Part shown: in pieces, positions 29,865 through 52,272 of the stretch | Numbering within the stretch: the stretch's first letter is position 1 | Layout: each line of letters begins with the position of its first letter | DNA from: Escherichia phage vB_EcoM-LTH01 | Reading direction: 5' to 3' (one strand) | DNA: 64,000 nt | Sequence record: PP430345 | Notes under the pieces: generated by a model | Seen by the model: only the letters and a program-made list of their open reading frames with translations | Databases searched by the model: none | Told to the model about the DNA's origin: nothing | Program-made: the position numbers and the translations under genes

Positions 29865-30025
29865 CTAGAAATGGTAGTTCAGCATACGAGAAGGGCCGAG
29901 CAGCCGGATTCAAGTTTGGGATGTTCAAGAGAAACAACCCGTATGATCCAAACACCATGCCGGAGCAATTTCAAGATTGGGAATCAGGATTTACAAAAGG
30001 GTATCAAGAAAAGGGGTGGTTATGA
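29861..30025 (+). CDS. hypothetical small protein
   Basis: ATGA overlap; SD GAGGGGAAAGAG; track start 29831. Confidence 0.4.
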   Translation: MTRNGSSAYEKGRAAGFKFGMFKRNNPYDPNTMPEQFQDWESGFTKGYQEKGWL

Positions 30026-30066
30026 GTGGATATGTGGGGATGGAAATAATAGGAGAAGAGAGAGTA

Positions 30067-31317
30067 ATGAAAGTTTACTTGGTAGGTGGCGCAGTTCGTG
30101 ATGAACTGATGAGTGTTGAAAGTAAGGATCGGGACTATGTAGTCGTCGGCGCGACCCATGAAGAAATGATTGAAAAGGGATTTACTAAGGTTGGTGCAGC
30201 TTTCCCTGTGTACCTTGAACCAAACACAAAAGAAGAGTACGCTCTTGCTCGAACGGAAAGATCAACAGGTCCTGGTTATCACGACTTCGAGGTTGTGTTC
30301 TCTCCCGACGTTACAATTGAACAAGACCTGATGCGAAGAGATTTGACCATTAATGCTATTGCCAAGGATCTTTCTACGGGTGAAATTATTGACCCTTGCG
30401 GTGGTGTACTCGATATTGAACTTCGTCGGTTACGTTGTGTATCCACTAAAGCATTTATCGAAGACCCTTTACGTGTATACCGATTAGCCAGATTACATGC
30501 CAGATACGGCGGCGAGTTTACAATTGATCCTGAGACTTGGGGAATGTGCAAGGATGTTGATTTAAGTGCATTGCCAAAAGAGCGTAAATTTGCAGAGATT
30601 AAGAAATGCTTTAGTGATCAGTCAGAAATGAATAAACCTTCGGTAATGATCCGTATGTTGACTCAACTGGGAGAATTTCCTGAGCTTGTGGATTTATACG
30701 ATGTTGTTCAACCCAAGGAGCACCACCCTGAAGGTGATGCATTTGTTCACACTTTACTTTGCATGGATTATGCCCAAGCGACTCGTGCAAGTGAAGCTGT
30801 GAAGTGGGCAGTTCTGTGTCACGACTTAGGGAAATGCATTTATTGGTTAACAGGTAAATTGCACGGGCATGAAGAACATGGTATCAAGTTGACTGAACAA
30901 GTTTGCGATCGCTTTGGTGTTCCTAACAATTGGAAGAAGTTAGCTTTAGCTGTAACTGAGCACCATACACGACTTCACCGTATCAAAGAGATGAAGCCAA
31001 AGAAAGTTTACGACTTGTTGGTAGCCTTACGTGGTGAAAAGGACCAGGCATTCCTTTCTGAGTTTATTGACGCTTGCATCTGTGATGCTCGTGGTCGTGG
31101 CCCTGAAAAAATGTTTGACAACTACACCCAGCCTTTGGTATTATTCTCAGCACTGGCGGGGATTGTTCAAAACAGCGTTGCAATCTCAAAAGAAAGTAAA
31201 GAGATTTCTGAAAGATTTGCTGGACGTCCAGAAGAGATCAAGAATAGAATCCGAAATGTAAAAGTAAGGTACGTTACACAATACATCGATAAGATGAAGG
31301 AGAGTGAAAATGGTTGA
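30067..31317 (+). CDS. cca: CCA-adding tRNA nucleotidyltransferase with HD domain
   Basis: MKVYLVGGAVRDELM head motif; HD motif LCHDLGK; ~416 aa like bacterial Cca; track start 29977 is an upstream extension. Confidence 0.85.
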   Translation: MKVYLVGGAVRDELMSVESKDRDYVVVGATHEEMIEKGFTKVGAAFPVYLEPNTKEEYALARTERSTGPGYHDFEVVFSPDVTIEQDLMRRDLTINAIAKDLSTGEIIDPCGGVLDIELRRLRCVSTKAFIEDPLRVYRLARLHARYGGEFTIDPETWGMCKDVDLSALPKERKFAEIKKCFSDQSEMNKPSVMIRMLTQLGEFPELVDLYDVVQPKEHHPEGDAFVHTLLCMDYAQATRASEAVKWAVLCHDLGKCIYWLTGKLHGHEEHGIKLTEQVCDRFGVPNNWKKLALAVTEHHTRLHRIKEMKPKKVYDLLVALRGEKDQAFLSEFIDACICDARGRGPEKMFDNYTQPLVLFSALAGIVQNSVAISKESKEISERFAGRPEEIKNRIRNVKVRYVTQYIDKMKESENG

Positions 31318-42044: not shown

Positions 42045-43244
42045 ATGTTAGAAATGTTGAACTTAGGTGCTGTGGCCTCTCTACCGCCGATTGATGGTGA
42101 AATTTCACCTGAATTTATCCAAGCGCAGCAATCGATAGTTATGTATCTTCACAGGCCAACTGGCAATCTTTACGGGTATGGTAATGCACCTGTATACCGA
42201 TTCGGAGACGGTATCCCAACAGAAGTGCCGAGCTTTAAACTTATCTATTCAAACTGTAAATATTTCTGGTTGGGTCAGGCTAGTACACTTGTTGCAACAA
42301 ACGATGATAAATTCTATTATGCTGGGGTCAGAAACGCATTTCCACCACTGGGGACAGGTGGTGGTAACGTTGCTTACTTTACTGAAGTTACAGTACATTT
42401 TAACAATATTGGTGTGACACCTGATGATATAAAAACTCTGGCGCTCGGTAGCGGATCTTGTAGGCTTCTGACAAAAGATGGTCGTGTTTTCTGCTGTGGT
42501 CTTAACTCTAATGGTGAGTGTGGGAACGGTACAAGAAATATGATTGCAAACTTTGTCCAGATCACCAATATGGGACCTATATCTCAATTGGCTACAAGGG
42601 CTTTCGGTACTCATTTCTTAACTGAAGATGGCAGGGAATTCTTTGCAGGGTACGATGCTTACGGGGAAAGTGGCCTAGGTGCTCTTAACAGCCACTTACA
42701 AACTCCAACATTGGTTACTTCGGGTGTTAAAAACATAATTGTTGCTACGGTATGTACTTGGAGAATAATGCAAAATGGAGACGTGTATTGGAGCGGTTTG
42801 AATACTCAAGGTTCTGCGGGAACAGGTTCATTTAACAACGCAGGTACGGTCCTAAGACCTATAAAAAACGATGCCTTGAGTGGAAACTTACCGGAGGGTG
42901 ATTTATTATATCCATCAGGCATCCAAACAGGTGATGCAACGGGTGCTCCGATCATTTGTTTCGGGAGAAACACTATCAAAAACGGTGGTGAAAACGGATC
43001 AGGTCAAGTGGGTGATGGTGTAAGTTATACATCGGTATATAACTATGTGGACATGTACAAACCTGCAACCTTCGGAGATAAAAAGGTTATTGGGGTGGCT
43101 AAAGATTATGTACGATCATTTATCTTAACTGAAGATTATCAATTGTTTGCCGCAGGTGGTAGAACAGCAAGTGGATGGACACTCCCTGATGGAGGGACCA
43201 GTGTTACACCCATGCGCCTCATGGCTAGTATGCCTTGGTACTAA
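42045..43244 (+). CDS. RCC1-like Gly-rich repeat protein, paralog 1 of 4
   Basis: starts MLEMLNLG; repeated G-x-N-x-x-G-x-x-G-x-G units such as CCGLNSNGECGNGT and WSGLNTQGSAGTGS. Confidence 0.7.
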   Translation: MLEMLNLGAVASLPPIDGEISPEFIQAQQSIVMYLHRPTGNLYGYGNAPVYRFGDGIPTEVPSFKLIYSNCKYFWLGQASTLVATNDDKFYYAGVRNAFPPLGTGGGNVAYFTEVTVHFNNIGVTPDDIKTLALGSGSCRLLTKDGRVFCCGLNSNGECGNGTRNMIANFVQITNMGPISQLATRAFGTHFLTEDGREFFAGYDAYGESGLGALNSHLQTPTLVTSGVKNIIVATVCTWRIMQNGDVYWSGLNTQGSAGTGSFNNAGTVLRPIKNDALSGNLPEGDLLYPSGIQTGDATGAPIICFGRNTIKNGGENGSGQVGDGVSYTSVYNYVDMYKPATFGDKKVIGVAKDYVRSFILTEDYQLFAAGGRTASGWTLPDGGTSVTPMRLMASMPWY

Positions 43245-43257
43245 TAAGGAGAATAGA

Positions 43258-44391
43258 ATGTTAGAGATGTTAAATTTATCTGGCGCGGCAGGGAAGGTCC
43301 CATTTAAGTTGAAAAAGTTTGATATTACAGCAAGCGAAAGTATTCACTTGCTTAGTGAAGCTGGCAATCTGTACTCAATATCACCTACAAATGTAAACTT
43401 ATCGGGAACGGGTGTTACCACAACGCAGTGGACGTTAGTCTCTTCGGGTGTAGATGACTTCTGGGCTGGGCAAGCTTCGCTCTTGTTCAAAACAAAAGGG
43501 GGATCGTGGTTTATTACAGGGTATAACTTCTTCGTACCTAGAGTAGAGAATACGCCCGTTGACGTAACGGCTAAGGTAATGGCAATCAATAAGCCGATAA
43601 GAAAAATAGAAATGGGTGCTAATGCGATCGCTTTCCTTTATACAGATAATACTCTGGCAGTTGCGGGATCAGGCCCCCATTTAGGCTTAGGTTCCAATAC
43701 TTCAGTCCCGAATTTAACTTATGTTGAACCACCAAATACTTCGTTGGGTATCAAAGATGTTGCGATATTGGATACTTCAGTTACTACCTGGATTATAAGC
43801 GGGGGTGATGTATACGGATGTGGAAACGGGGCTTACTCTAAGTTTTCTTCTTCCAACGGGACAGGCCAAAGGACCTCTTTTGTTAGGATACCAAACCCAA
43901 TAAACTCAGCACCACTTGCATTAAAGACTGGATATGAGTGCGTGTATATTTCAGGCTCACGCACAGACGGGGATGAATTGATACTCGGCTTAGGTAGCAA
44001 CGCATATGGGTCATTAGGTGCAGCATCTACTGTTGCAACTGTAACTGACATATCTGTAGTCACAAGCAGTGTTTATTCACCCGCTTACGGGTTTTACCCT
44101 CTCGCCCAAGGTCTTGTGAGGAGAATAAATAACAATATCGGTATTACGGGGAGGACTGCGGGGACAGGCTGGGGATTGGGAACTCAGACGTATTACGGTA
44201 TTACTAGAATAACCACTACAGCAAGTCCGTTATGGGGTCAAATATTTCAAAGGGGTGAGTATACAAACACTTACGTTCTGGCAGAAGATGGTATTTTGTA
44301 TGGGTCGGGTGGGGCTTCAACAGGTAAATTACCTGGTTACACAACAGATCAGTCAACCTATGTGCCACTGGACCTTACCGGACTTGAATAA
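43258..44391 (+). CDS. RCC1-like Gly-rich repeat protein, paralog 2 of 4
   Basis: AAGGAGAATAGA SD then MLEMLNLSG; track start 43147 overlaps paralog 1. Confidence 0.7.
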   Translation: MLEMLNLSGAAGKVPFKLKKFDITASESIHLLSEAGNLYSISPTNVNLSGTGVTTTQWTLVSSGVDDFWAGQASLLFKTKGGSWFITGYNFFVPRVENTPVDVTAKVMAINKPIRKIEMGANAIAFLYTDNTLAVAGSGPHLGLGSNTSVPNLTYVEPPNTSLGIKDVAILDTSVTTWIISGGDVYGCGNGAYSKFSSSNGTGQRTSFVRIPNPINSAPLALKTGYECVYISGSRTDGDELILGLGSNAYGSLGAASTVATVTDISVVTSSVYSPAYGFYPLAQGLVRRINNNIGITGRTAGTGWGLGTQTYYGITRITTTASPLWGQIFQRGEYTNTYVLAEDGILYGSGGASTGKLPGYTTDQSTYVPLDLTGLE

Positions 44392-44400
44392 GGAAAAATT

Positions 44401-45540
44401 ATGTTAGAGATGATGAACTTAGGTTCTGTCGAATTGCCAGAAGTGGAAGGTAACGTTAAGAAATTCGCCGCCGGAGGTACGGGGATTGTTGTACTTATGA
44501 AATCCGGCAACGCCTACGGTATCGGAGATCAATACTTCAGCGGTACAGGGGGGAATGTTACAACATGGAGGCTTCTGGCAAGAAACGTTGCAGATATATG
44601 GGCTGCAACTGGCTCTGTGCTTATGAGGACAACCGCAGATAGATGGTTGTTTATGGGGTTTAACCAATATTTTAATACTGGTTTTGGAACTACGATAACC
44701 ACCCCCAGAGATATAACTACAGATATGCCTATACCCGAAGGATTTGAGATCAAGCAGTTGGTACTCGGGTATCGTAACTTGGCTGTTGTCTTTACCAATG
44801 GGCGGTATGCAATGTGCGGGACTAATAACGCAGGAGGTCTGGGGACAGGGGACACTTTTGCAGTAAGAACCTTAACCTTAAGAACTGACTTCACAAACGT
44901 TGAAAAAATAGATCTTGATTGGGCAACCTACGACACATCTTATCTTCTTACCCAAGCTGGTGAAGTTTATGTATCAGGTGTTTCAAATAATGGACAAAAC
45001 GGGACAACTTCAAACACTACAACTTGGTTTAGGCAAAGCCCAATTAGTGGTGGTACGGTAGTTGACATAATCGCGACAACGCTTGGGTTTTTTAGGGTTG
45101 TACTTTTAAATGGTAATTACTACGTCTACGCACAAGGGCGAAGTTCGTCAGGGAGTCTTGGGGTAAATAACTCAGGTAACATAAACGTTCTTTCACCCTC
45201 ATTGGTATTTTCTAATGTACCTTCAAGACCTCCTTTGTACATTGGTCACCTTAGCGCCCGTATTCTCCACCCCGAAGAAAGGGTATACTATACAGGGGCG
45301 GCTACGGGTAGTTTACAAGGAGCAGGTGCACAATTTCAGTCGTCGTATTCAGTATTTACACGGCTTGCAGAGACTGTACCGTATGGTGGAGAATATTCAT
45401 CCCTAAAAGGTGGCTATGTTGCACACTACTATGTAGATAAAGGAAACCTATATGGTGTCGGTAATAGCAGTGCAGGATTGCTCCCAGGTTACATAGGTAC
45501 ACAACTCTTCGAATTTACACCGTTGGAATTGCCGGAGTAA
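44401..45540 (+). CDS. RCC1-like Gly-rich repeat protein, paralog 3 of 4
   Basis: MLEMMNLG start; CGTNNAGGLGTGDT; C-terminal LLPGY...LELPE. Confidence 0.7.
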   Translation: MLEMMNLGSVELPEVEGNVKKFAAGGTGIVVLMKSGNAYGIGDQYFSGTGGNVTTWRLLARNVADIWAATGSVLMRTTADRWLFMGFNQYFNTGFGTTITTPRDITTDMPIPEGFEIKQLVLGYRNLAVVFTNGRYAMCGTNNAGGLGTGDTFAVRTLTLRTDFTNVEKIDLDWATYDTSYLLTQAGEVYVSGVSNNGQNGTTSNTTTWFRQSPISGGTVVDIIATTLGFFRVVLLNGNYYVYAQGRSSSGSLGVNNSGNINVLSPSLVFSNVPSRPPLYIGHLSARILHPEERVYYTGAATGSLQGAGAQFQSSYSVFTRLAETVPYGGEYSSLKGGYVAHYYVDKGNLYGVGNSSAGLLPGYIGTQLFEFTPLELPE

Positions 45541-45562
45541 AAAACTTCAAAAGGGGAATTAA

Positions 45563-46714
45563 ATGTTAGAAATGATGAACTTAGGCACTGTTAAACTTCC
45601 TGCGGGAGGAGGCAGGGTCAAGAAGTTTGCAGCGGGGCAACAAGGCATCGTTGTACTTATGGAGTCTGGGAAACTCTATGGTCGCGGAAGTCAGTATTTT
45701 AGTGGTACAGGGTCTACTGTAAACACTTGGAAACTGCTAGGAACAGATATCGCAGACGTATGGACGGGTCCCGTATCAACTCTTGCAAGGACAACAGACG
45801 ACAGATGGTTGTTTATGGGATTGAACCAATATTTTAACACTGGTTTTGGGACAACATGGTCCGCGCTGACGGATGTTACAGTGGATATGCCTATCCCTGT
45901 TGGCCTTACGGTTAAGCAGGTAGTGATGGGATACATAAACGTTGCAGTAGTCTTTGCAAATGGACAATATGCCATGTGTGGGACAAATGTCTCCGGTGGA
46001 TTGGGTGTTGGTAACACATCACCTGTGAGAACCTTAACATTAAGGACCGATTTTACGAACGTGGAGAAGATAGACCTCGATTGGGGGACATATGATACCT
46101 CCTATCTTCTTACCCAAGCTGGTGATGTTTATGTGGCCGGACAATCTTCTTATGGTCAAAACGGAACACAGTCTAGCTCCACAACTTGGTTCAGGCAAAG
46201 TTCAGTTAGCGGCGGGACAGTGGTAGATATAGTTGCAACAACCTTAGGGTTCTTCAGGATCGTTCTTTCATCAGGGAGTTACCGAATATATGCGCAAGGG
46301 AGGGACATAAACAATAGTCTTGGAACTAACACCACAAGCAACACACCTCGACTGGCCCCTGTATTAGTTCTTTCGGGAATAGCAAGTGCAGTAAGACCAA
46401 GGGTATATATCAGTCACTATGCTGCCCGAGTTATAGATAGCGATGGAGTAGTATACTTTACAGGACAAGGGACGGGAGATCTACAGGGTGTTGGGACCAC
46501 ACCTCAACCAACGTATCGTGTTTTTTCACAGCTTGACCCAATAGTTCCGTCCGTAGGTGATTATTTTTCCACAAGATCTCAGTACCTGACTAACTATTAT
46601 TTGGAAGATGGTGTTCTGTATGGTGTTGGTCAGGGTGCTCAAGCAACACAGTTACTACCTGGTTATGGAACGACACAGGTTCTGACTTTCTCTGTTCTGG
46701 AATTACCGGAATAA
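45563..46714 (+). CDS. RCC1-like Gly-rich repeat protein, paralog 4 of 4
   Basis: MLEMMNLG start; CGTNVSGGLGVGNT; C-terminal LLPGY...LELPE; followed by terminator. Confidence 0.7.
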   Translation: MLEMMNLGTVKLPAGGGRVKKFAAGQQGIVVLMESGKLYGRGSQYFSGTGSTVNTWKLLGTDIADVWTGPVSTLARTTDDRWLFMGLNQYFNTGFGTTWSALTDVTVDMPIPVGLTVKQVVMGYINVAVVFANGQYAMCGTNVSGGLGVGNTSPVRTLTLRTDFTNVEKIDLDWGTYDTSYLLTQAGDVYVAGQSSYGQNGTQSSSTTWFRQSSVSGGTVVDIVATTLGFFRIVLSSGSYRIYAQGRDINNSLGTNTTSNTPRLAPVLVLSGIASAVRPRVYISHYAARVIDSDGVVYFTGQGTGDLQGVGTTPQPTYRVFSQLDPIVPSVGDYFSTRSQYLTNYYLEDGVLYGVGQGAQATQLLPGYGTTQVLTFSVLELPE

Positions 46715-48419: not shown

Positions 48420-48539
48420 ATGAACATTTACGAAATGGTAACAGTTGAGCACGTCCTGTTTGACCTTAATAACGGATACATTAACGTTTGTTGCGGTGAT
48501 ACATTAACTTCAATTGTTAAATTGGAAATTGAAGATTAG
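48420..48539 (+). CDS. small protein (39 aa)
   Basis: ORF packed exactly between neighbours. Confidence 0.3.
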   Translation: MNIYEMVTVEHVLFDLNNGYINVCCGDTLTSIVKLEIED

Positions 48540-48541
48540 AT

Positions 48542-48736
48542 ATGGTATACCGTACATTTGAAGAATGGAAAAAGAAAGGTCGTGTCGTCGTAAAAGGAGA
48601 GGAAGCTGCGGGATTCCTTAAGGACGGCACGGCATTGTTCTCTAAAGAGCAGACAAAGAAAACACCAACTAAATTATACACTCACAACCAAGGGTACGAC
48701 TCATGGTACATGGGTGATGAGTATGAATACTATTGA
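48542..48736 (+). CDS. hypothetical protein
   Basis: 64-aa ORF. Confidence 0.45.
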   Translation: MVYRTFEEWKKKGRVVVKGEEAAGFLKDGTALFSKEQTKKTPTKLYTHNQGYDSWYMGDEYEYY

Positions 48737-48747
48737 TAAGAGGTAAT

Positions 48748-48984
48748 ATGGCACACTATAACTTTCAAGAAATTAAAAGAGGTGCATACTTCGGTCATGT
48801 GGACGGCCCTAATGACGAAGTGTTCAGGAAATCGGGGACGTTTACGTTCTACGATGTTAAGAGCAAAGACTGTCTGGACATTCGAGAGACGACTTGGAGA
48901 CATAACTTCAGTAGTGATGAACGTCCTTTCGTGTTGGCACAGGTAGAAATTAAGGTCGATATCACTTGGAGGCCGGAATGGTAA
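48748..48984 (+). CDS. hypothetical protein
   Basis: ATG after AAGAGG; track start 48733. Confidence 0.45.
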   Translation: MAHYNFQEIKRGAYFGHVDGPNDEVFRKSGTFTFYDVKSKDCLDIRETTWRHNFSSDERPFVLAQVEIKVDITWRPEW

Positions 48985-49364
48985 ATAAAATCGCACATCG
49001 TTGGAATGGTACACGTAAATCTTTGGCAGAAGAGGCCGAAAGGCGTAAAGAACAAGAGGAGAAGATTGTTTCTGGCTCTGTACGTAGGATCTATATAGAA
49101 CCGAAAGATAAGAAGGTAATTTATGACGGAACAGAGGCGCAATTTGTCTACGAAATAGCTAAGAAGGATGCAGATGCCCTTGGGTTTACTCAGAGCTACC
49201 TTGAGTATGCCTACGATAATGGAATTGAATCTATCATCCTTCAAGAAGATAAAGATAAATCTCAATACAAGTCAGTAAAAGCACAGAGCTACAGAATTGT
49301 TAAGCTTGTCAATCTATTTGACATTGACAATCCAACGTATGCCCTCAGACGACTGGCTGTATGA
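48978..49364 (+). CDS. hypothetical protein
   Basis: ATG after GGAGG; last + strand gene, followed by terminator. Confidence 0.5.
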   Translation: MVNKIAHRWNGTRKSLAEEAERRKEQEEKIVSGSVRRIYIEPKDKKVIYDGTEAQFVYEIAKKDADALGFTQSYLEYAYDNGIESIILQEDKDKSQYKSVKAQSYRIVKLVNLFDIDNPTYALRRLAV

Positions 49365-49377
49365 TCCTGAACTACAG

Positions 49378-49404
49378 AGAGCACCCCAAAAGTGGGTGCT
49401 TTTT
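49378..49404 (+). terminator. intrinsic terminator closing the + strand block
   Basis: GAGCACCCCAAAAGTGGGTGCT + TTTTT. Confidence 0.75.
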
Positions 49405-49429
49405 GCATCTGGATTGCAACCAAACTCAT

Positions 49430-50400
49430 CTGCTCATCCCAAAATGTTGTACACCTCTCCAAAATGTTGTGCCCACCAAACTATATAGTCCTTCCAAACT
49501 GTTGTACTCCAGCTACAATAATGCCCAAATATCGTACAACGATTCCCACAAATATCGATTCATCCCAAAATTAGGTAGTTTGCCTAAAGAGTAACCACTA
49601 CTTGGCCTACTGAGGCGCATCTTTTGCCACAGAGTTACCTCCCTTCCCTATACATCCATCCCTCATAGTTTAGAATTTCCAGTATATGTCTACTCTGAGT
49701 GGACCTCCATCATGAATTTTAAACGACAACTTTTTAGTTTTTATACCCTCCCGCCAAAATTTTGAGTCACCTCTTATGGGGTATGCCGCCTGTGAATATC
49801 CCACAAAATATCTCACAGGTCATAAAATATACCTCCCCGCCAAATTTTATGATGGATACTCCACGGGGGTGGGTCCATTATTTATCCTGCCCAAATATAT
49901 CTAAAGGGGGTAGCCTAAAGAGGCTCGCCAGTAGTGTCCCTTGACCTTGTTCCTCGTCAGCAAGAAAGAAGAGGATGTTTGCATCTTTTTTGTTGAGTGC
50001 GTTGGCACTGTTGCCAGGCACGGCGACCGTGGGGGAGGGGGAGGGGGTCGGATGTTTTCAAAATATCCAGGAAGTCAAGCATTATTTCTATTTATTTTCA
50101 ATCCACAATACATCTTTGATTCGACTTGTCAAGAAAAATGTTGTGCTCTTCCAACAATAAAGTTAAAGATTTCTATTGACTTCTGAATCTGATTTAGAAT
50201 ACTGATTTCAATCTGCATTTAACATAATACAACTTATACGCACTACAAGCGACTTGCAAGCGCCCTTCTTCCAGTCCAACAAGTGAGGCGACCTCAAGCC
50301 CCGCCAGGTCTGGCCCCTTCCAACTTGTGAGAAGAATAATCCCAACTTGTTACTATCCAACTGTGAATTATTCCAACTGTACAGAAGCGACTCCATCAGG
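49430..50400. repeat. iteron-like short direct repeats (CCAA-N-TGT family)
   Basis: CCAAAATGTTGT x2, CCAAACTGTTGT, CCAACAAGTG, CCAACTTGTG, CCAACTTGTT, CCAACTGTG, CCAACTGTAC in an ORF-free region. Confidence 0.5.
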
Positions 50401-50534
50401 GCCATCAATAGCCTGAGCGCCCCGCCATACTCTGGCAATAAAAGCAAGAAAAAATTTATTTTGGGAGAGAAGAGAGAAGAGAGTTTTACCTAGCAATATT
50501 CTATTGTCTGTTCATTCTGTGGGCAAGTAACAGC

Positions 50535-50600
50535 CTTTTACGGCCTCTTTGTGTACTGTGCATCCTCTTTGTGTACCCTACAGCCTCTTTGTGTGGTCAC
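50535..50600. repeat. triple direct repeat CCTCTTTGTGT
   Basis: three copies at ~22-bp spacing. Confidence 0.55.
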
Positions 50601-50714
50601 ACTAACGGCCTTCCTATTGACTAGCTATTCACTTTATATGAATAACAAAGCATTAAATAATTCAATATTATCTTCGATAATGTATTGACAAAAGATAAAA
50701 GATTACTACAAGTA

Positions 50715-50828
50715 GACACTATAAAACGAGGAAACGAAGAGAACAGATAGCAACAATCTGTTTCGTTGATATCGGTTATCACCGATGACCGCATAGCGGT
50801 AGGAGGGGTATACTCGTTTTATAGTGTC
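50715..50828. repeat. nested inverted repeat (long hairpin/cruciform)
   Basis: GACACTATAAAACGAG ... CTCGTTTTATAGTGTC 16-bp perfect inverted repeat enclosing ACAGAT/ATCTGT and ATCGGT/ACCGAT palindromes. Confidence 0.55.
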
Positions 50829-51084
50829 GCTCCCTACGGTCGCGCCACCTCCATACTCTGGCAATGGTATCTCTTTAAAACTGCTTTCTTTGTGGGCAAG
50901 ATAGTTCTTTCTTTGTGTGTTTTGTTGTGGTAAGCTATCAGATTAGTTTTGATTTTTGGGAGAGAGATTCCAAAGGGTGATTGGATTGATGGGTAAAGTA
51001 AGTTAGAGGGGTTAGATAGGATAAGATGATCCAAATAGGGAAGAGATTAATAGAGTTGGGAGAGTCACGCCGATGGATATGATA

Positions 51085-51105
51085 AGGGCCGCTATTGCGG
51101 CCCCT
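51085..51105 (-). terminator. intrinsic terminator closing the minus-strand block
   Basis: minus strand GGGCCGCAATAGCGGCCC followed by TTATCAT. Confidence 0.5.
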
Positions 51106-51119
51106 GATTATGTTACCTC

Positions 51120-51539
51120 TTAAAGTGCTTCATAGATTTCATAGTAGCGATTTGCCAGATCATTACGAAAGCGGAATTTTTCATCACGTTTGATAATCAG
51201 GTCTTTAAAGCCAAAATCTTTCAGTGCTTCATTAACTTTACTGCGGCTTACTTTCATGTTGTCCTGTGCATCACCGATAAATTTGTTGCTGTGCTGCATT
51301 GCTTTAATTTCTTCTTCCAGAACCAGGGCAACTACACGAACCGGATCAAGGCGATAATCGTTAACATCCATACGGCATTGTAAACGGCTTTTAACGTCTG
51401 CCACTGGATAAACTGCAACCTCTTCCCCATCAACATTGACGATAACCAGTTTACCATCAATTTCAAAACCTTTGGCGGCGCTACCGTGACAAAAAGCGTT
51501 ATCGAAAGAGTAAGCCGGATTAGTTGATTTGATGTTCAT
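51120..51539 (-). CDS. hypothetical protein (possible KilA-N/Bro-N-like N-terminal domain)
   Basis: 139-aa ORF with promoter upstream; FEIDGKLVIVNVDGEEVAVYPVADV loosely Bro-N-like. Confidence 0.55.
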   Translation of the reverse strand: MNIKSTNPAYSFDNAFCHGSAAKGFEIDGKLVIVNVDGEEVAVYPVADVKSRLQCRMDVNDYRLDPVRVVALVLEEEIKAMQHSNKFIGDAQDNMKVSRSKVNEALKDFGFKDLIIKRDEKFRFRNDLANRYYEIYEAL

Positions 51540-51671
51540 GTCGTTGTCCTTTGTTTTGTTGTTTGCTGCTAGAGATATAACTATACTGCAAAATTGACTT
51601 TCTTGTCAATAGAGGGAATTGTAAATTAATGGAATATTTACAAAGGGGGCATATAACCCCCGTTTTCGATA

Positions 51672-51941
51672 TTACTTAGTATACCCTTTAAACCACTCCT
51701 GCCAGGCCTGGTTATGTTCTGCCTCATCACGACGAATCTGTTTTTGCTCCGCAAGTCGGATCTCATCTTCGAGGTAGCCCAGGATATCGGCCTTTTTGAC
51801 TTTCTGCAACTTCCAATCATCAGCTTTGTGGCTGAATACCTTATAAGCCTTCTCACATACTTCTTTTTTGCTCCCTTTCTGAACTTCAAGGATACGGTAA
51901 GCCATATGCTGAACTACTTTAAGCTGGTCGATGCGATTCAT
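51672..51941 (-). CDS. hypothetical protein
   Basis: 89-aa ORF with balanced composition; preferred over overlapping 51638..51889. Confidence 0.5.
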   Translation of the reverse strand: MNRIDQLKVVQHMAYRILEVQKGSKKEVCEKAYKVFSHKADDWKLQKVKKADILGYLEDEIRLAEQKQIRRDEAEHNQAWQEWFKGYTK

Positions 51942-51996
51942 GATGTTAATCCTGTTAGGTCAGTTAGTGGGCCTTTCGGCCCGTTTGATTATTCTA

Positions 51997-52272
51997 TTAT
52001 GAGCGTCTGGCAAATTCAAGAGTTTTTTCTTCGAAATCTTCTTGAGCTTGCCACAATACTGATTGCATCATGTGATTAGCATCAGTGAAACCGTTGCTTT
52101 TAGCAAACTTATCCGCGCCGCCTTCTTCTGCGTATTCTGCATTCATAGCTGCAACATTATGATACTCGATGTTATTGAGGTAAGGACTTGCTACACCGTC
52201 AACATCTGTAGCCACTACCATATCCCAAAACTCAGTGATTTCTTTGTCTAATTTGGCGTTAAGTTGTAACAT
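51997..52272 (-). CDS. hypothetical acidic protein
   Basis: 91-aa ORF downstream of TTGACA promoter. Confidence 0.55.
   Translation of the reverse strand: MLQLNAKLDKEITEFWDMVVATDVDGVASPYLNNIEYHNVAAMNAEYAEEGGADKFAKSNGFTDANHMMQSVLWQAQEDFEEKTLEFARRS

Follow-up and report, generated by a model that had tools for sequence, protein, structure and literature searches.

The DNA between the two convergent gene blocks of Escherichia phage vB_EcoM-LTH01 (sequence record PP430345) very probably contains the ends of the phage genome, at the edges of a predicted direct terminal repeat (DTR) that carries at its centre a close match to dif, the chromosomal site of the host recombinases XerC and XerD. We analysed a stretch of 64,000 nucleotides of this record, hereafter the window, which covers about 45% of the genome. 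Its plus-strand gene block (ligase, ribonucleotide reductases, tRNA nucleotidyltransferase and others) terminates at 49364 and its minus-strand block at 51120. A preliminary description, made from the letters alone, had suggested that the gap between them is an origin of replication, a packaging (pac or cos) region or a genome-end junction. The genome-end and packaging reading is supported by homologous gaps in related phages, which hold DTRs of 459–519 bp with aligned boundaries, and with good confidence we regard the gap as the joined-ends (concatemer-junction) region of a phage that would package its DNA in unit lengths, with short direct repeats at the termini. The two most informative elements had escaped that description: the dif-like site, and a covarying long inverted repeat that had been seen merely as a 'nested inverted repeat'.

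The region and its flanks are 81–91% identical to Escherichia phages A5-4, A7_1, A73, W70 and UPEC06, all Vequintavirinae, the first four being assigned or close to the genus Septuagintavirus (PMC11370258, PMC12942863). Judged by its sequence, the window phage is a Septuagintavirus-like vequintavirus (Vequintavirinae). The interval 49365–51119 is the poorest in open reading frames (ORFs): its longest stop-free run, 93 codons, is the lowest among 125 equal-sized (1755-bp) segments, for which the median is 200. In the five closest relatives, frameshifts or stop codons interrupt its small ORFs, which also lack an excess of changes at third codon positions; we rejected them as genes, which bears out the earlier view that no credible ORF lies between the blocks. 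The flanking genes at 48966–49364 (+) and 51120–51539 (−) are intact in all five relatives and show ~3–5x more third-position changes. Convergent ORF-free gaps of 1.5–2.5 kb also occur in Vequintavirus Gotham, Seunavirus PVP-SE1, Avunavirus Av-05, TH18 and 18-1-2, and Certrevirus CR3, and by this comparison the gap between convergent gene blocks is conserved across the subfamily. On the map of phage rV5, the equivalent place was drawn as an unexplained 'non-coding' box (PMC3606486).

The window holds the DTR once, as would be expected from a circularised or rotated assembly in which the ends are joined or collapsed, and the repeat was placed by homology. We assign it to 50017–50490 (474 bp, +) because of the mapping of the UPEC06 repeat, the matching edges, steps in conservation and the point at which homology to W70 resumes. 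The UPEC06 record has 462 bp that are 100% identical at both ends and map to 50017–50487/50490 at 86.7% identity. In the Gotham record, the DTR occupies positions 1–459 and again 136567–137025, inside the gap and with ~1 kb of non-coding DNA on either side; its length of 459 bp agrees with the published one (PMC7471380). An IMG/VR contig of 148,842 bp has a 519-bp terminal repeat. The boundaries of these three repeats align nucleotide-for-nucleotide with the window between 50016 and 50017 and between 50490 and 50491. Within the genus, conservation climbs at ~50000 (0.73 to 0.95) and drops at ~50500 (0.91 to 0.64), which coincides with the predicted edges, and W70 homology resumes at 50007, after an unrelated insert. 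The boundaries are likely to be right to within a few nucleotides.

The edges themselves are alike across records (a slash marks the cut). The predicted left terminase cut, TGCCA/GGC (50012–50019, +), would make 50017 the left end of the virion DNA; the left edge reads gtgctgcca/GGCGGACGG in Gotham, actgctgcca/GGCACGGCGACCG in UPEC06 and actgttgcca/GGCACGGCGACCG in the window. The IMG/VR contig starts exactly at tta/GACGGAC, the aligned position in Seunavirus PVP-SE1 (gtgcta/GACGGAC) and Avunavirus Av-05. On the right, a purine tract is followed by the predicted cut TTTTACC/TAGC (50462–50494, +). Known right boundaries share this layout of purine tract, T-rich bases and cut: gagaagagagTTTTGTC/TAGC in UPEC06, gaggagaaaaaCTTGTC/TGAC in Gotham and aagagaagaTGCT/CAAC in the Phapecoctavirus Mt1B1_P17, which has an identical 328 bp at both record ends. 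The endings are TTTTGTC/TAGC in UPEC06, CTTGTC/TGAC in Gotham and TTTTACC/TAGC in the window. Across records, the fixed parts are TGCCA/GGC (or TTA/GAC) on the left and purine tract–TTTT(G/A)(T/C)C/T on the right. Terminal repeats have also been reported for phage Jab (475 bp; PMC13538427), the Phapecoctavirus Schickermooser (328 bp; PMC6563267) and the Justusliebigvirus BME3 (342 bp, determined by PhageTerm; PMC12210895). These rV5-like DTRs resemble the one described here in their gap, repeat length and boundary nucleotides and have internal elements in common with the window (CAAAATATC and, in Vequintavirinae, the dif-like site), but the reports give lengths only, and describe neither a cut-site consensus nor the dif-like site or the inverted repeat. 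We found no determination of septuagintavirus genome ends in the literature searched, and exact-match scans of IMG/VR and metagenomes with septuagintavirus-specific 21-mers and 44-mers gave no match. A Logan contig with the neighbouring gene stops at window position 50364, an arbitrary and uninformative break inside CCAAC repeats. A 61-aa ORF at 49975–50160 (+) has a signal-peptide-like start (MFASFLLSALALLPGTA…), spans the predicted left cut at 50017 and is annotated in A5-4; it is open in four of the five relatives, would be intact only on joined ends, and has few substitutions and no convincing coding signal. Most records of these phages were deposited as circles opened at an arbitrary point, and spurious small ORFs are annotated over the ends.

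Some observations weigh against this placement. In principle, the UPEC06 repeat might reflect overlapping assembly ends; its 462 bp, however, do not correspond to a k-mer length, and Gotham has matching edges. The right boundary also differs slightly here (TTTTACC, versus TTTTGTC in UPEC06), and rV5 was originally described as circularly permuted (PMC3606486). If that description held for the window phage, packaging would be by the headful mechanism, the region would be only a pac site and the 'terminal repeats' in databases would be assembly artefacts. Besides the rV5 report, the overlap in ECO340P2, just 55 bp and of k-mer type, and the deposition of most relatives without repeats fit such a scheme. 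The Gotham authors, however, contrasted Gotham, for which they reported one specific packaging start in all virions, with three permuted phages lacking a region of 2x coverage (PMC7471380), and PhageTerm was used to type BME3. Three independent records representing different genera start at the aligned nucleotide, and repeat lengths of 328–519 bp are not k-mer sizes. Headful packaging of circularly permuted DNA is therefore very improbable as an account of the region. A cos site, the other packaging signal named in the preliminary description, is unlikely because the relatives carry long repeats instead of cohesive ends.

The dif-like site spans 28 bp at 50217–50244 (−) and reads AGTGCGTATAA (XerC arm)-GTTGTA-TTATGTTAAAT (XerD arm). 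Escherichia coli dif is GGTGCGCATAATGTATATTATGTTAAAT, that is, GGTGCGCATAA-TGTATA-TTATGTTAAAT (PMC2731167). Against it, the XerD arm of the window site matches at 11 of 11 positions and the XerC arm at 9 of 11, giving 2 mismatches in 22 arm positions. The match is the only one in the window, with 0.00 expected by chance. Its reverse complement, ATTTAACATAATAC-N3-TTATRCGCAC, is the sole DTR sequence conserved across the five genera examined. The XerD arm is complete (11/11) in all Vequintavirinae genera examined, and the XerC arm matches at 9–11 of 11 positions, with Gotham and Av-05 matching fully in both arms. The central hexamer is 6 bp long in all lineages; in the vequintavirus genera it is GTTGTA, TGGGTA, CGTGTA or GGTGTA and never the host TGTATA, from which it differs at 2–3 of 6 positions in every vequintavirus lineage examined. 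Among six septuagintaviruses, 27 of the 28 nucleotides are invariant. In each of the three records whose ends are known, the repeat encloses the site (Gotham, 170–197 of 459; UPEC06, 201–228 of 462; the IMG/VR contig, 204–231 of 519), and two direct copies are therefore expected per virion DNA. In the window, an 11-nt insertion relative to all five relatives (50245–50255; TACAAGCGACT) starts exactly at the outer edge of the XerC arm.

We lean towards the dif-like site being a functional XerCD target. In its favour, no phage tyrosine recombinase appears among the Pfam families listed for the 124 ORFs of the window (25 of the 31 families matched), and an endonuclease VII is encoded. Several points count against this use. 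The XerC arm carries its two mismatches to E. coli dif. The pattern ATTTAACATAATAC-N3-TTATRCGCAC was found at 16 IMG/VR, 34 metagenomic and 11 bacterial genome loci, with flanks not conserved, but these collection-wide matches are biased, as the search fixed GTA at the XerD side of the hexamer; Gotham, PVP-SE1, Av-05 and the Erwinia phages, which came up in BLAST searches or by their annotated DTRs, do not depend on that pattern. Sites of the chromosomal type ordinarily require FtsK at the septum; the same listed families include neither FtsK-gamma nor an XafT-like protein, and no phage activator came to light among the window ORFs. Phapecoctavirus junctions lack a dif-like site (best match 14/22, which is chance level) despite a similar repeat; the site is therefore not part of the cutting machinery and not needed for packaging. 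The 'FtsK' label on a neighbouring gene in UPEC06 is unsupported as well. That product, QUL77437.1 'DNA translocase FtsK', a homologue of the 89-aa product of 51672–51941 (−), was rejected as FtsK for want of any Pfam match at E ≤ 10 or any relative in the PDB, and the label looks like an annotation artefact.

Motifs of the type known as FtsK-orienting polar sequences (KOPS) do not recur throughout the genera. The G-tract GGGGGAGGGGGAGGGGG (50031–50047, +) noted in the preliminary description comprises two overlapping GGGNAGGG motifs, which lie at −185 and −179 and point to the XerD side; Certrevirus has one at −193. In Vequinta-, Seuna- and Avunavirus such motifs are absent or reversed; since only two genera show polarity, it carries little weight, and we downgraded it as a general feature. 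A third KOPS-type motif (GGGAAGGG) at 49641–49648 (−) is on the opposite strand and directed away from the dif-like site. The 1.75-kb gap accounts for three of the five GGGNAGGG motifs in the window.

The chromosomal dif/XerCD system of Enterobacteria has the same 11 + 6 + 11 layout, an identical XerD arm and an XerC arm shared at 9 of 11 positions (11 of 11 in Gotham and Av-05). It differs in its hexamer (TGTATA, versus GTTGTA here) and in KOPS polarity, seen here in two genera only, and the phage site sits on a virulent phage with two copies expected per virion DNA. Xer sites recombine with partners whose central region is the same. The two DTR copies share their central region by definition and the hexamer differs from that of the host, so that the recombination partner would be the other phage copy rather than the chromosome. 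Recombination between phage copies is the likeliest use of the site, and cyclisation, although no more than a tentative suggestion, is the purpose we propose for it. A comparable arrangement is that of phage P1, in which Cre/loxP cyclises the terminally redundant DNA: there too, a recombination site lies inside the terminal redundancy and two direct copies could circularise the genome without homologous recombination. P1, however, uses its own recombinase, packages by the headful mechanism and has two lox sites in some virions only, whereas here the recombinase would be the host's and two sites would be present in every virion.

Plasmid sites offer a second comparison. Like cer of ColE1 and psi of pSC101, the phage site would let a non-chromosomal replicon borrow host XerCD, and recombination between direct repeats would give a circle. 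On their XerC side, plasmid Xer sites have ~180 bp of accessory DNA for PepA plus ArgR or ArcA, and the Holliday junction made by XerC is finished by another resolvase (PMC5357621). The window likewise has repeats on the XerC side: four (T)CCAAC(T)TGT copies (50320–50381, +; 86–90% conserved), 76–137 bp from the dif-like site. Their position resembles that of the cer/psi accessory sequences, a parallel that we infer by analogy only. The window arms are closer to dif than to the plasmid sites, the centre is 6 bp rather than the 8 bp of cer, and no ArgR, ArcA or PepA sites were identified; ArgR and ArcA boxes near the dif-like site were looked for by inspection, with none recognised and no formal scan run.

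A different use of the site would be integration into the chromosome, in the manner of the integrative mobile elements exploiting Xer (IMEX), or service as a decoy that titrates XerCD and FtsK and so disturbs host segregation. The near-perfect arms would suit either, and phages that exploit Xer, CTXphi, VGJphi and TLCphi, integrate at dif (PMC5357621). These elements, together with GGI and the Xer-using gokushoviruses, share with the window phage dif-like sites that exploit XerCD, but IMEX integrate at dif and are temperate or chronic, whereas the window phage is a virulent tailed myovirus showing no sign of integration. The phage region had no match, integrated or on a plasmid, in 5,426 complete E. 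coli genomes or 72,556 plasmids, and in these collections we found no copy integrated at the host dif and flanked by dif and dif-like sites, the arrangement that distinguishes an IMEX. Exchange with dif should be disfavoured by the hexamer, which in no vequintavirus lineage examined is that of the host, and the relatives are described as strictly lytic (PMC12942863). Integration or decoy function is accordingly an improbable role for the site. We found no paper in the literature searched that links Xer or dif to these phages.

The second main element lies ~225 bp to the right of the DTR. At 50715–50828, a long perfect inverted repeat, GACACTATAAAACGAG (50715–50730) and CTCGTTTTATAGTGTC (50813–50828), encloses three small hairpins, and would form a four-way junction when single-stranded. 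The domain folds at −48.8 kcal/mol (z-score −4.5), with both strands alike. A perfect inverted repeat of 16–21 bp is present at the homologous position in every genus examined; the arm sequences differ (GACACAATAACGCAGTAG; GACACTATAACACGAGAG; GACCAATAGAAAACAGGT; GACATAATATAAAAGCAG; CCGCCATAGTCAGTTATGGAG), while complementarity is kept. Each of the 16 pairs scored has changed on both sides, and 112 of 112 are Watson–Crick with no G–T, compared with 22–40% pairing in slid registers. Pairs were counted with our own script, as MAFFT alignments of the arms slipped out of register. Perfect pairing was itself the search criterion, and the real evidence is that such a repeat occurs at the same place in every genus. 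The outer end of the arm has a conserved GTC. The internal hairpins are not conserved, even within a genus. In each genus the inverted repeat is followed by a conserved tail (…GTCGCGCC). In the window, this tail, GCTCCCTACGGTCGCGCCACC, together with a second box (CCTCCATACTCTGGCAAT), occupies 50829–50865 (+); it is 100% conserved among septuagintaviruses and 86–97% identical to Avuna- and Seunavirus phages (Av-05, TH18, PVP-SE1 and Cronobacter phages). The tail (50829–50847) might have been the start of the DTR in inverted form; we rejected this idea, since 29 of 300 shuffles do equally well and other genera have their best matches elsewhere.

Upstream of the inverted repeat, a sigma-70-like promoter can be read from the sequence (TTGACA-16-TACAAG, 50686–50713, +), which would place the transcription start at the arm. 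This raises the question of whether 50715–50847 specifies a structured small RNA transcribed from that promoter; the tandem units in the region (TTTCTATTGACT, promoter-like; the CCATACTCTGGCAAT box; TTTTGGGAGAGA) would then be two RNA genes. The strong fold, the complete covariation of the closing stem and the repeated unit layout are in keeping with this, as is a promoter-like site that sets the start at the stem in Septuaginta- and Certrevirus. UPEC06 has TATAAG as its −10 element and Certrevirus TTGAC(A/T) at the same distance, but Vequintavirus has the −10 element only and Seuna- and Avunavirus have no promoter. There is no terminator after the domain, and an Rfam 15 scan of 48500–52000 gave no match at E ≤ 1. 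The complete Watson–Crick pairing without G–U, with both strands folding equally, fits a palindrome acting at the DNA level better, and the interior varies within genera. A small RNA is therefore unlikely. With no wobble pairs, strands that fold symmetrically and an interior that is not conserved, the inverted repeat more probably acts as a DNA hairpin, formed during end processing or priming, than as an RNA.

Several of the same features could belong to a replication origin, started by transcription as in T7 or T4, or by hairpin priming for a gp4-like primase–helicase, and could there serve a role that coexists with the genome ends. The region has 15 promoter-like sites (6.9 expected), an AT-rich stretch at 50070–50250, same-strand iterons and a hairpin arm with the conserved GTC. 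T7 primase recognises GTC-containing sites. A gp4-like primase–helicase is encoded by rV5 (PMC3606486), and unrelated metagenomic contigs have the same type of dif-like site beside DnaA boxes. In the window region, however, there is no DnaA box (TTWTNCACA) and no adjacent initiator gene, an AT-rich stretch taken alone lacks specificity, and the features of the region are equally or better explained as end-processing signals. The flip in GC skew at the gap tracks the switch in transcription direction, the same conclusion that the rV5 authors drew for the equivalent place (PMC3606486). The origin proposed in the preliminary description thus receives no specific support; we consider it an unlikely and weak rival, albeit not an exclusive one.

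Certain unrelated sequences combine dif-like sites with other signals. The jumbo-size contig Ga0209953_1000001 (261,806 bp; loci L044/L022) and locus L058 have a dif-like site with the centre TGTGTA and two perfect DnaA boxes (TTATCCACAgcTTATCCACA) ≤12 nt on; the contig also has a partial inverted copy upstream of the site, and may represent a dif-plus-origin module of another phage or plasmid lineage. Three metagenome contigs (L050, L055 and L069) have tandem dif-like sites ~85 nt apart (ATTTAACATAATACACATTATGCGCAC … ATTTAACATAATATATTATATGCG), which resembles IMEX-type junctions, and in L050 three tRNA genes lie a few kb away. In Pseudomonas and Pantoea chromosomes (L071, L075, L076, L078 and L073), an NNNGTA-type dif-like site is followed ~45–55 nt on by the motif (G)CA(G/C)ATTTGAAGCC; in L076, the site adjoins remnants of a tyrosine-recombinase gene.

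The gap contains further repeats on both sides of the predicted cuts. At least eight CCAA-N2-4-TGT iterons had been described; the enrichment is real but the count is not, as the strict pattern occurs five times and the N1-4 pattern seven times. All seven copies of CCAA-N1-4-TGT are on the plus strand; the frequency in the rest of the window predicts 1.0 (P about 1e-4), although the pattern is not enriched over the whole window (33 found, 31 expected). The set is heterogeneous, one group lying outside the DTR near the left cut and another inside it. A better-defined family, CAAA(W)TATC, has four copies in the gap against 0.14 expected. Copies of CAAA(A)TATC type lie just outside the left DTR edge and 40–75 nt inside it in every genus examined, including the Phapecoctavirus Mt1B1_P17; in the window, the inner one is the CAAAATATC element (50059–50067, +), ~45 nt inside the repeat. 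The outer group is a cluster of CC(C)AAA(A/C)T(G/A)T(T/C)GTAC-type repeats at 49434–49581, including CCCAAATATCG and CCCACAAATATCG, enriched and on the plus strand only, and the stretch 49500–49600 is 94–96% conserved in relatives. By analogy with T7-type junctions, this cluster (pac-type) and the other short repeats that flank the DTR on either side are candidates for terminase recognition.

The remaining elements of the preliminary description (duplicated boxes, triple repeat and nested inverted repeat) are likewise all present, as is the G-tract. Left of the DTR are two TATACC(C)TCCCGCCAAA(A)TTTT boxes (49742–49762 and 49828–49848, +), their CCCGCCAAA(A)TTTT parts at 49750 and 49836; Certrevirus CR3 has a site ~90% identical to the first CCCGCCAAAATTTT box (49742–49762), ~85 nt to the left of its homologous boundary. 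These boxes fall in a variable spacer (49600–50006; conservation 0.11–0.73) that is replaced or rich in indels in relatives. In W70 (1326–2221), the part corresponding to 49629–50006 is swapped for ~900 bp with a 160-aa ORF, W70_248, and the position appears to be an insertion hotspot. Inside the DTR, box 1, CCGCCATACTCTGGCAAT (50422–50439, +; CCATACTCTGGCAAT box at 50425), lies in a block, 50400–50450, that is 100% conserved; its second copy is at 50848–50865 (CCATACTCTGGCAAT at 50851), and Gotham has an analogous duplicated box, GCCATGCCATTCGTTTGCAT. A73 has three CCATACTCTGGCAAT boxes (2112, 2215 and 2633) instead of two, through a ~100-bp duplication near the right repeat edge, and its original gene numbering wraps around at this place. 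The right boundary is followed closely by 2.8 copies of a 20-bp repeat (…CCTCTTTGTGT…; 50539–50594, +), which are poorly conserved (0.42–0.64) and prone to indels, and Gotham has a (G)TTTACA(C/T) array at the same place. Further right are a block at 50616–50662 with the palindrome TATTCA-N7-TGAATA (50626–50644), which is 74% identical to Seunavirus with the palindrome kept, and two CTTTCTTTGTG repeats with a TGTGGGCAAG box (50884–50917, +; 92–100% conserved); TGTGGGCAAG boxes are duplicated in the gap, as had been listed. Fur-box-like palindromes occur in or beside the terminal repeats of other genera (Gotham, DTR 1–459; Mt1B1_P17, DTR 1–328; CR3, beside dif), for example AATGAGAATAATTATCATT and, in CR3, GATAATGATAATCATT; the window has none.

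Both convergent terminators proposed earlier are borne out as strong folds. The hairpin ending the plus-strand block (49375–49405, the element extending to 49410, +) has a U5 run and folds at −18.8 kcal/mol (z-score −3.98); that ending the minus-strand block (51084–51105, −) folds at −18.0 kcal/mol (z-score −4.5), and its U tract, UUAUCAU, is poor. A consensus terminator scan listed neither. The last plus-strand gene (48966–49364, 132 aa), intact in the five relatives and with a bias towards third-position substitutions, encodes a product of unknown function that gave no match in PHROG and Pfam searches. The last minus-strand gene (51120–51539, 139 aa) matches phrog_12277, also of unknown function; its homologue is gene 1 in phapecoctavirus records opened at the terminal repeat, such as Mt1B1_P17. 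Shortly upstream of the predicted genome end, four consecutive paralogous genes at 42045–46714 (+; 379–414 aa) form an unusual tandem expansion; all match PHROG families annotated as 'regulator of chromosome condensation' (RCC1-like repeats). The gene at 29977–31317 (+) encodes a CCA-adding tRNA nucleotidyltransferase, yet a tRNA and tmRNA scan with ARAGORN found no gene in the 64-kb window; relatives are reported to have 5–6 tRNAs elsewhere in the genome. Terminase genes are not among the ORFs of the window.

Taken together, these elements suggest how the ends might be made. By analogy with T7-type junctions, terminase would recognise the flanking same-strand repeats, the CAAA(A)TATC/CCAAAATGT family and the CCCGCCAAAATTTT boxes, and cut both edges of the single junction repeat, which would be duplicated by DNA synthesis. 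At T7/T3 concatemer junctions, too, a single junction repeat is cut on both sides and duplicated, and arrays of short repeats abut the terminal repeat; an inverted repeat lies nearby here. Models for T7 invoke nicking, strand displacement or primase-initiated synthesis, and a hairpin intermediate (PMC4281155). There is, however, no sequence similarity between T7/T3 and the window, the repeat here is three times longer, and the window phage is a myovirus without a phage RNA polymerase, so that the pause signal of the T7 polymerase has no counterpart. The inverted repeat, ~225 bp inside the left unique end, could form a hairpin in single-stranded DNA for end processing or priming. Host XerC and XerD would bind the dif-like site at the centre of the repeat, and recombination between two direct phage copies would cyclise the injected genome or release circles from concatemers, with the non-host hexamer preventing crossover with chromosomal dif. 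We put forward the combined scheme only as a speculative one: throughout the virulent Vequintavirinae subfamily, a dif-type site at the DTR centre may allow XerCD to circularise genomes or excise circles, endonuclease VII might finish Holliday junctions made by XerC, the altered hexamer may bar crossover with the chromosome, and the inverted repeat may be the hairpin that duplicates or primes the DTR.

Relative to the literature searched, the comparison adds predicted genome ends at nucleotide level for the genus, a proposed subfamily-wide cut-site consensus, and the dif-like site with the covarying hairpin. Septuagintaviruses and their relatives gain a defined genome start, and the consensus can be tested across the whole subfamily. 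The covarying inverted repeat provides a handle on the old question of how short terminal repeats are duplicated during packaging. A conserved dif-type site in the terminal repeat of phages that are candidates for therapy points to an unrecognised dependency on host XerC, XerD and perhaps FtsK, which could affect host range and routes to resistance. If true, this would extend Xer exploitation from filamentous, micro- and double jelly-roll (DJR)-type temperate phages to virulent tailed phages, and would be the first case of a lytic tailed phage shown to depend on the host machinery for chromosome-dimer resolution.

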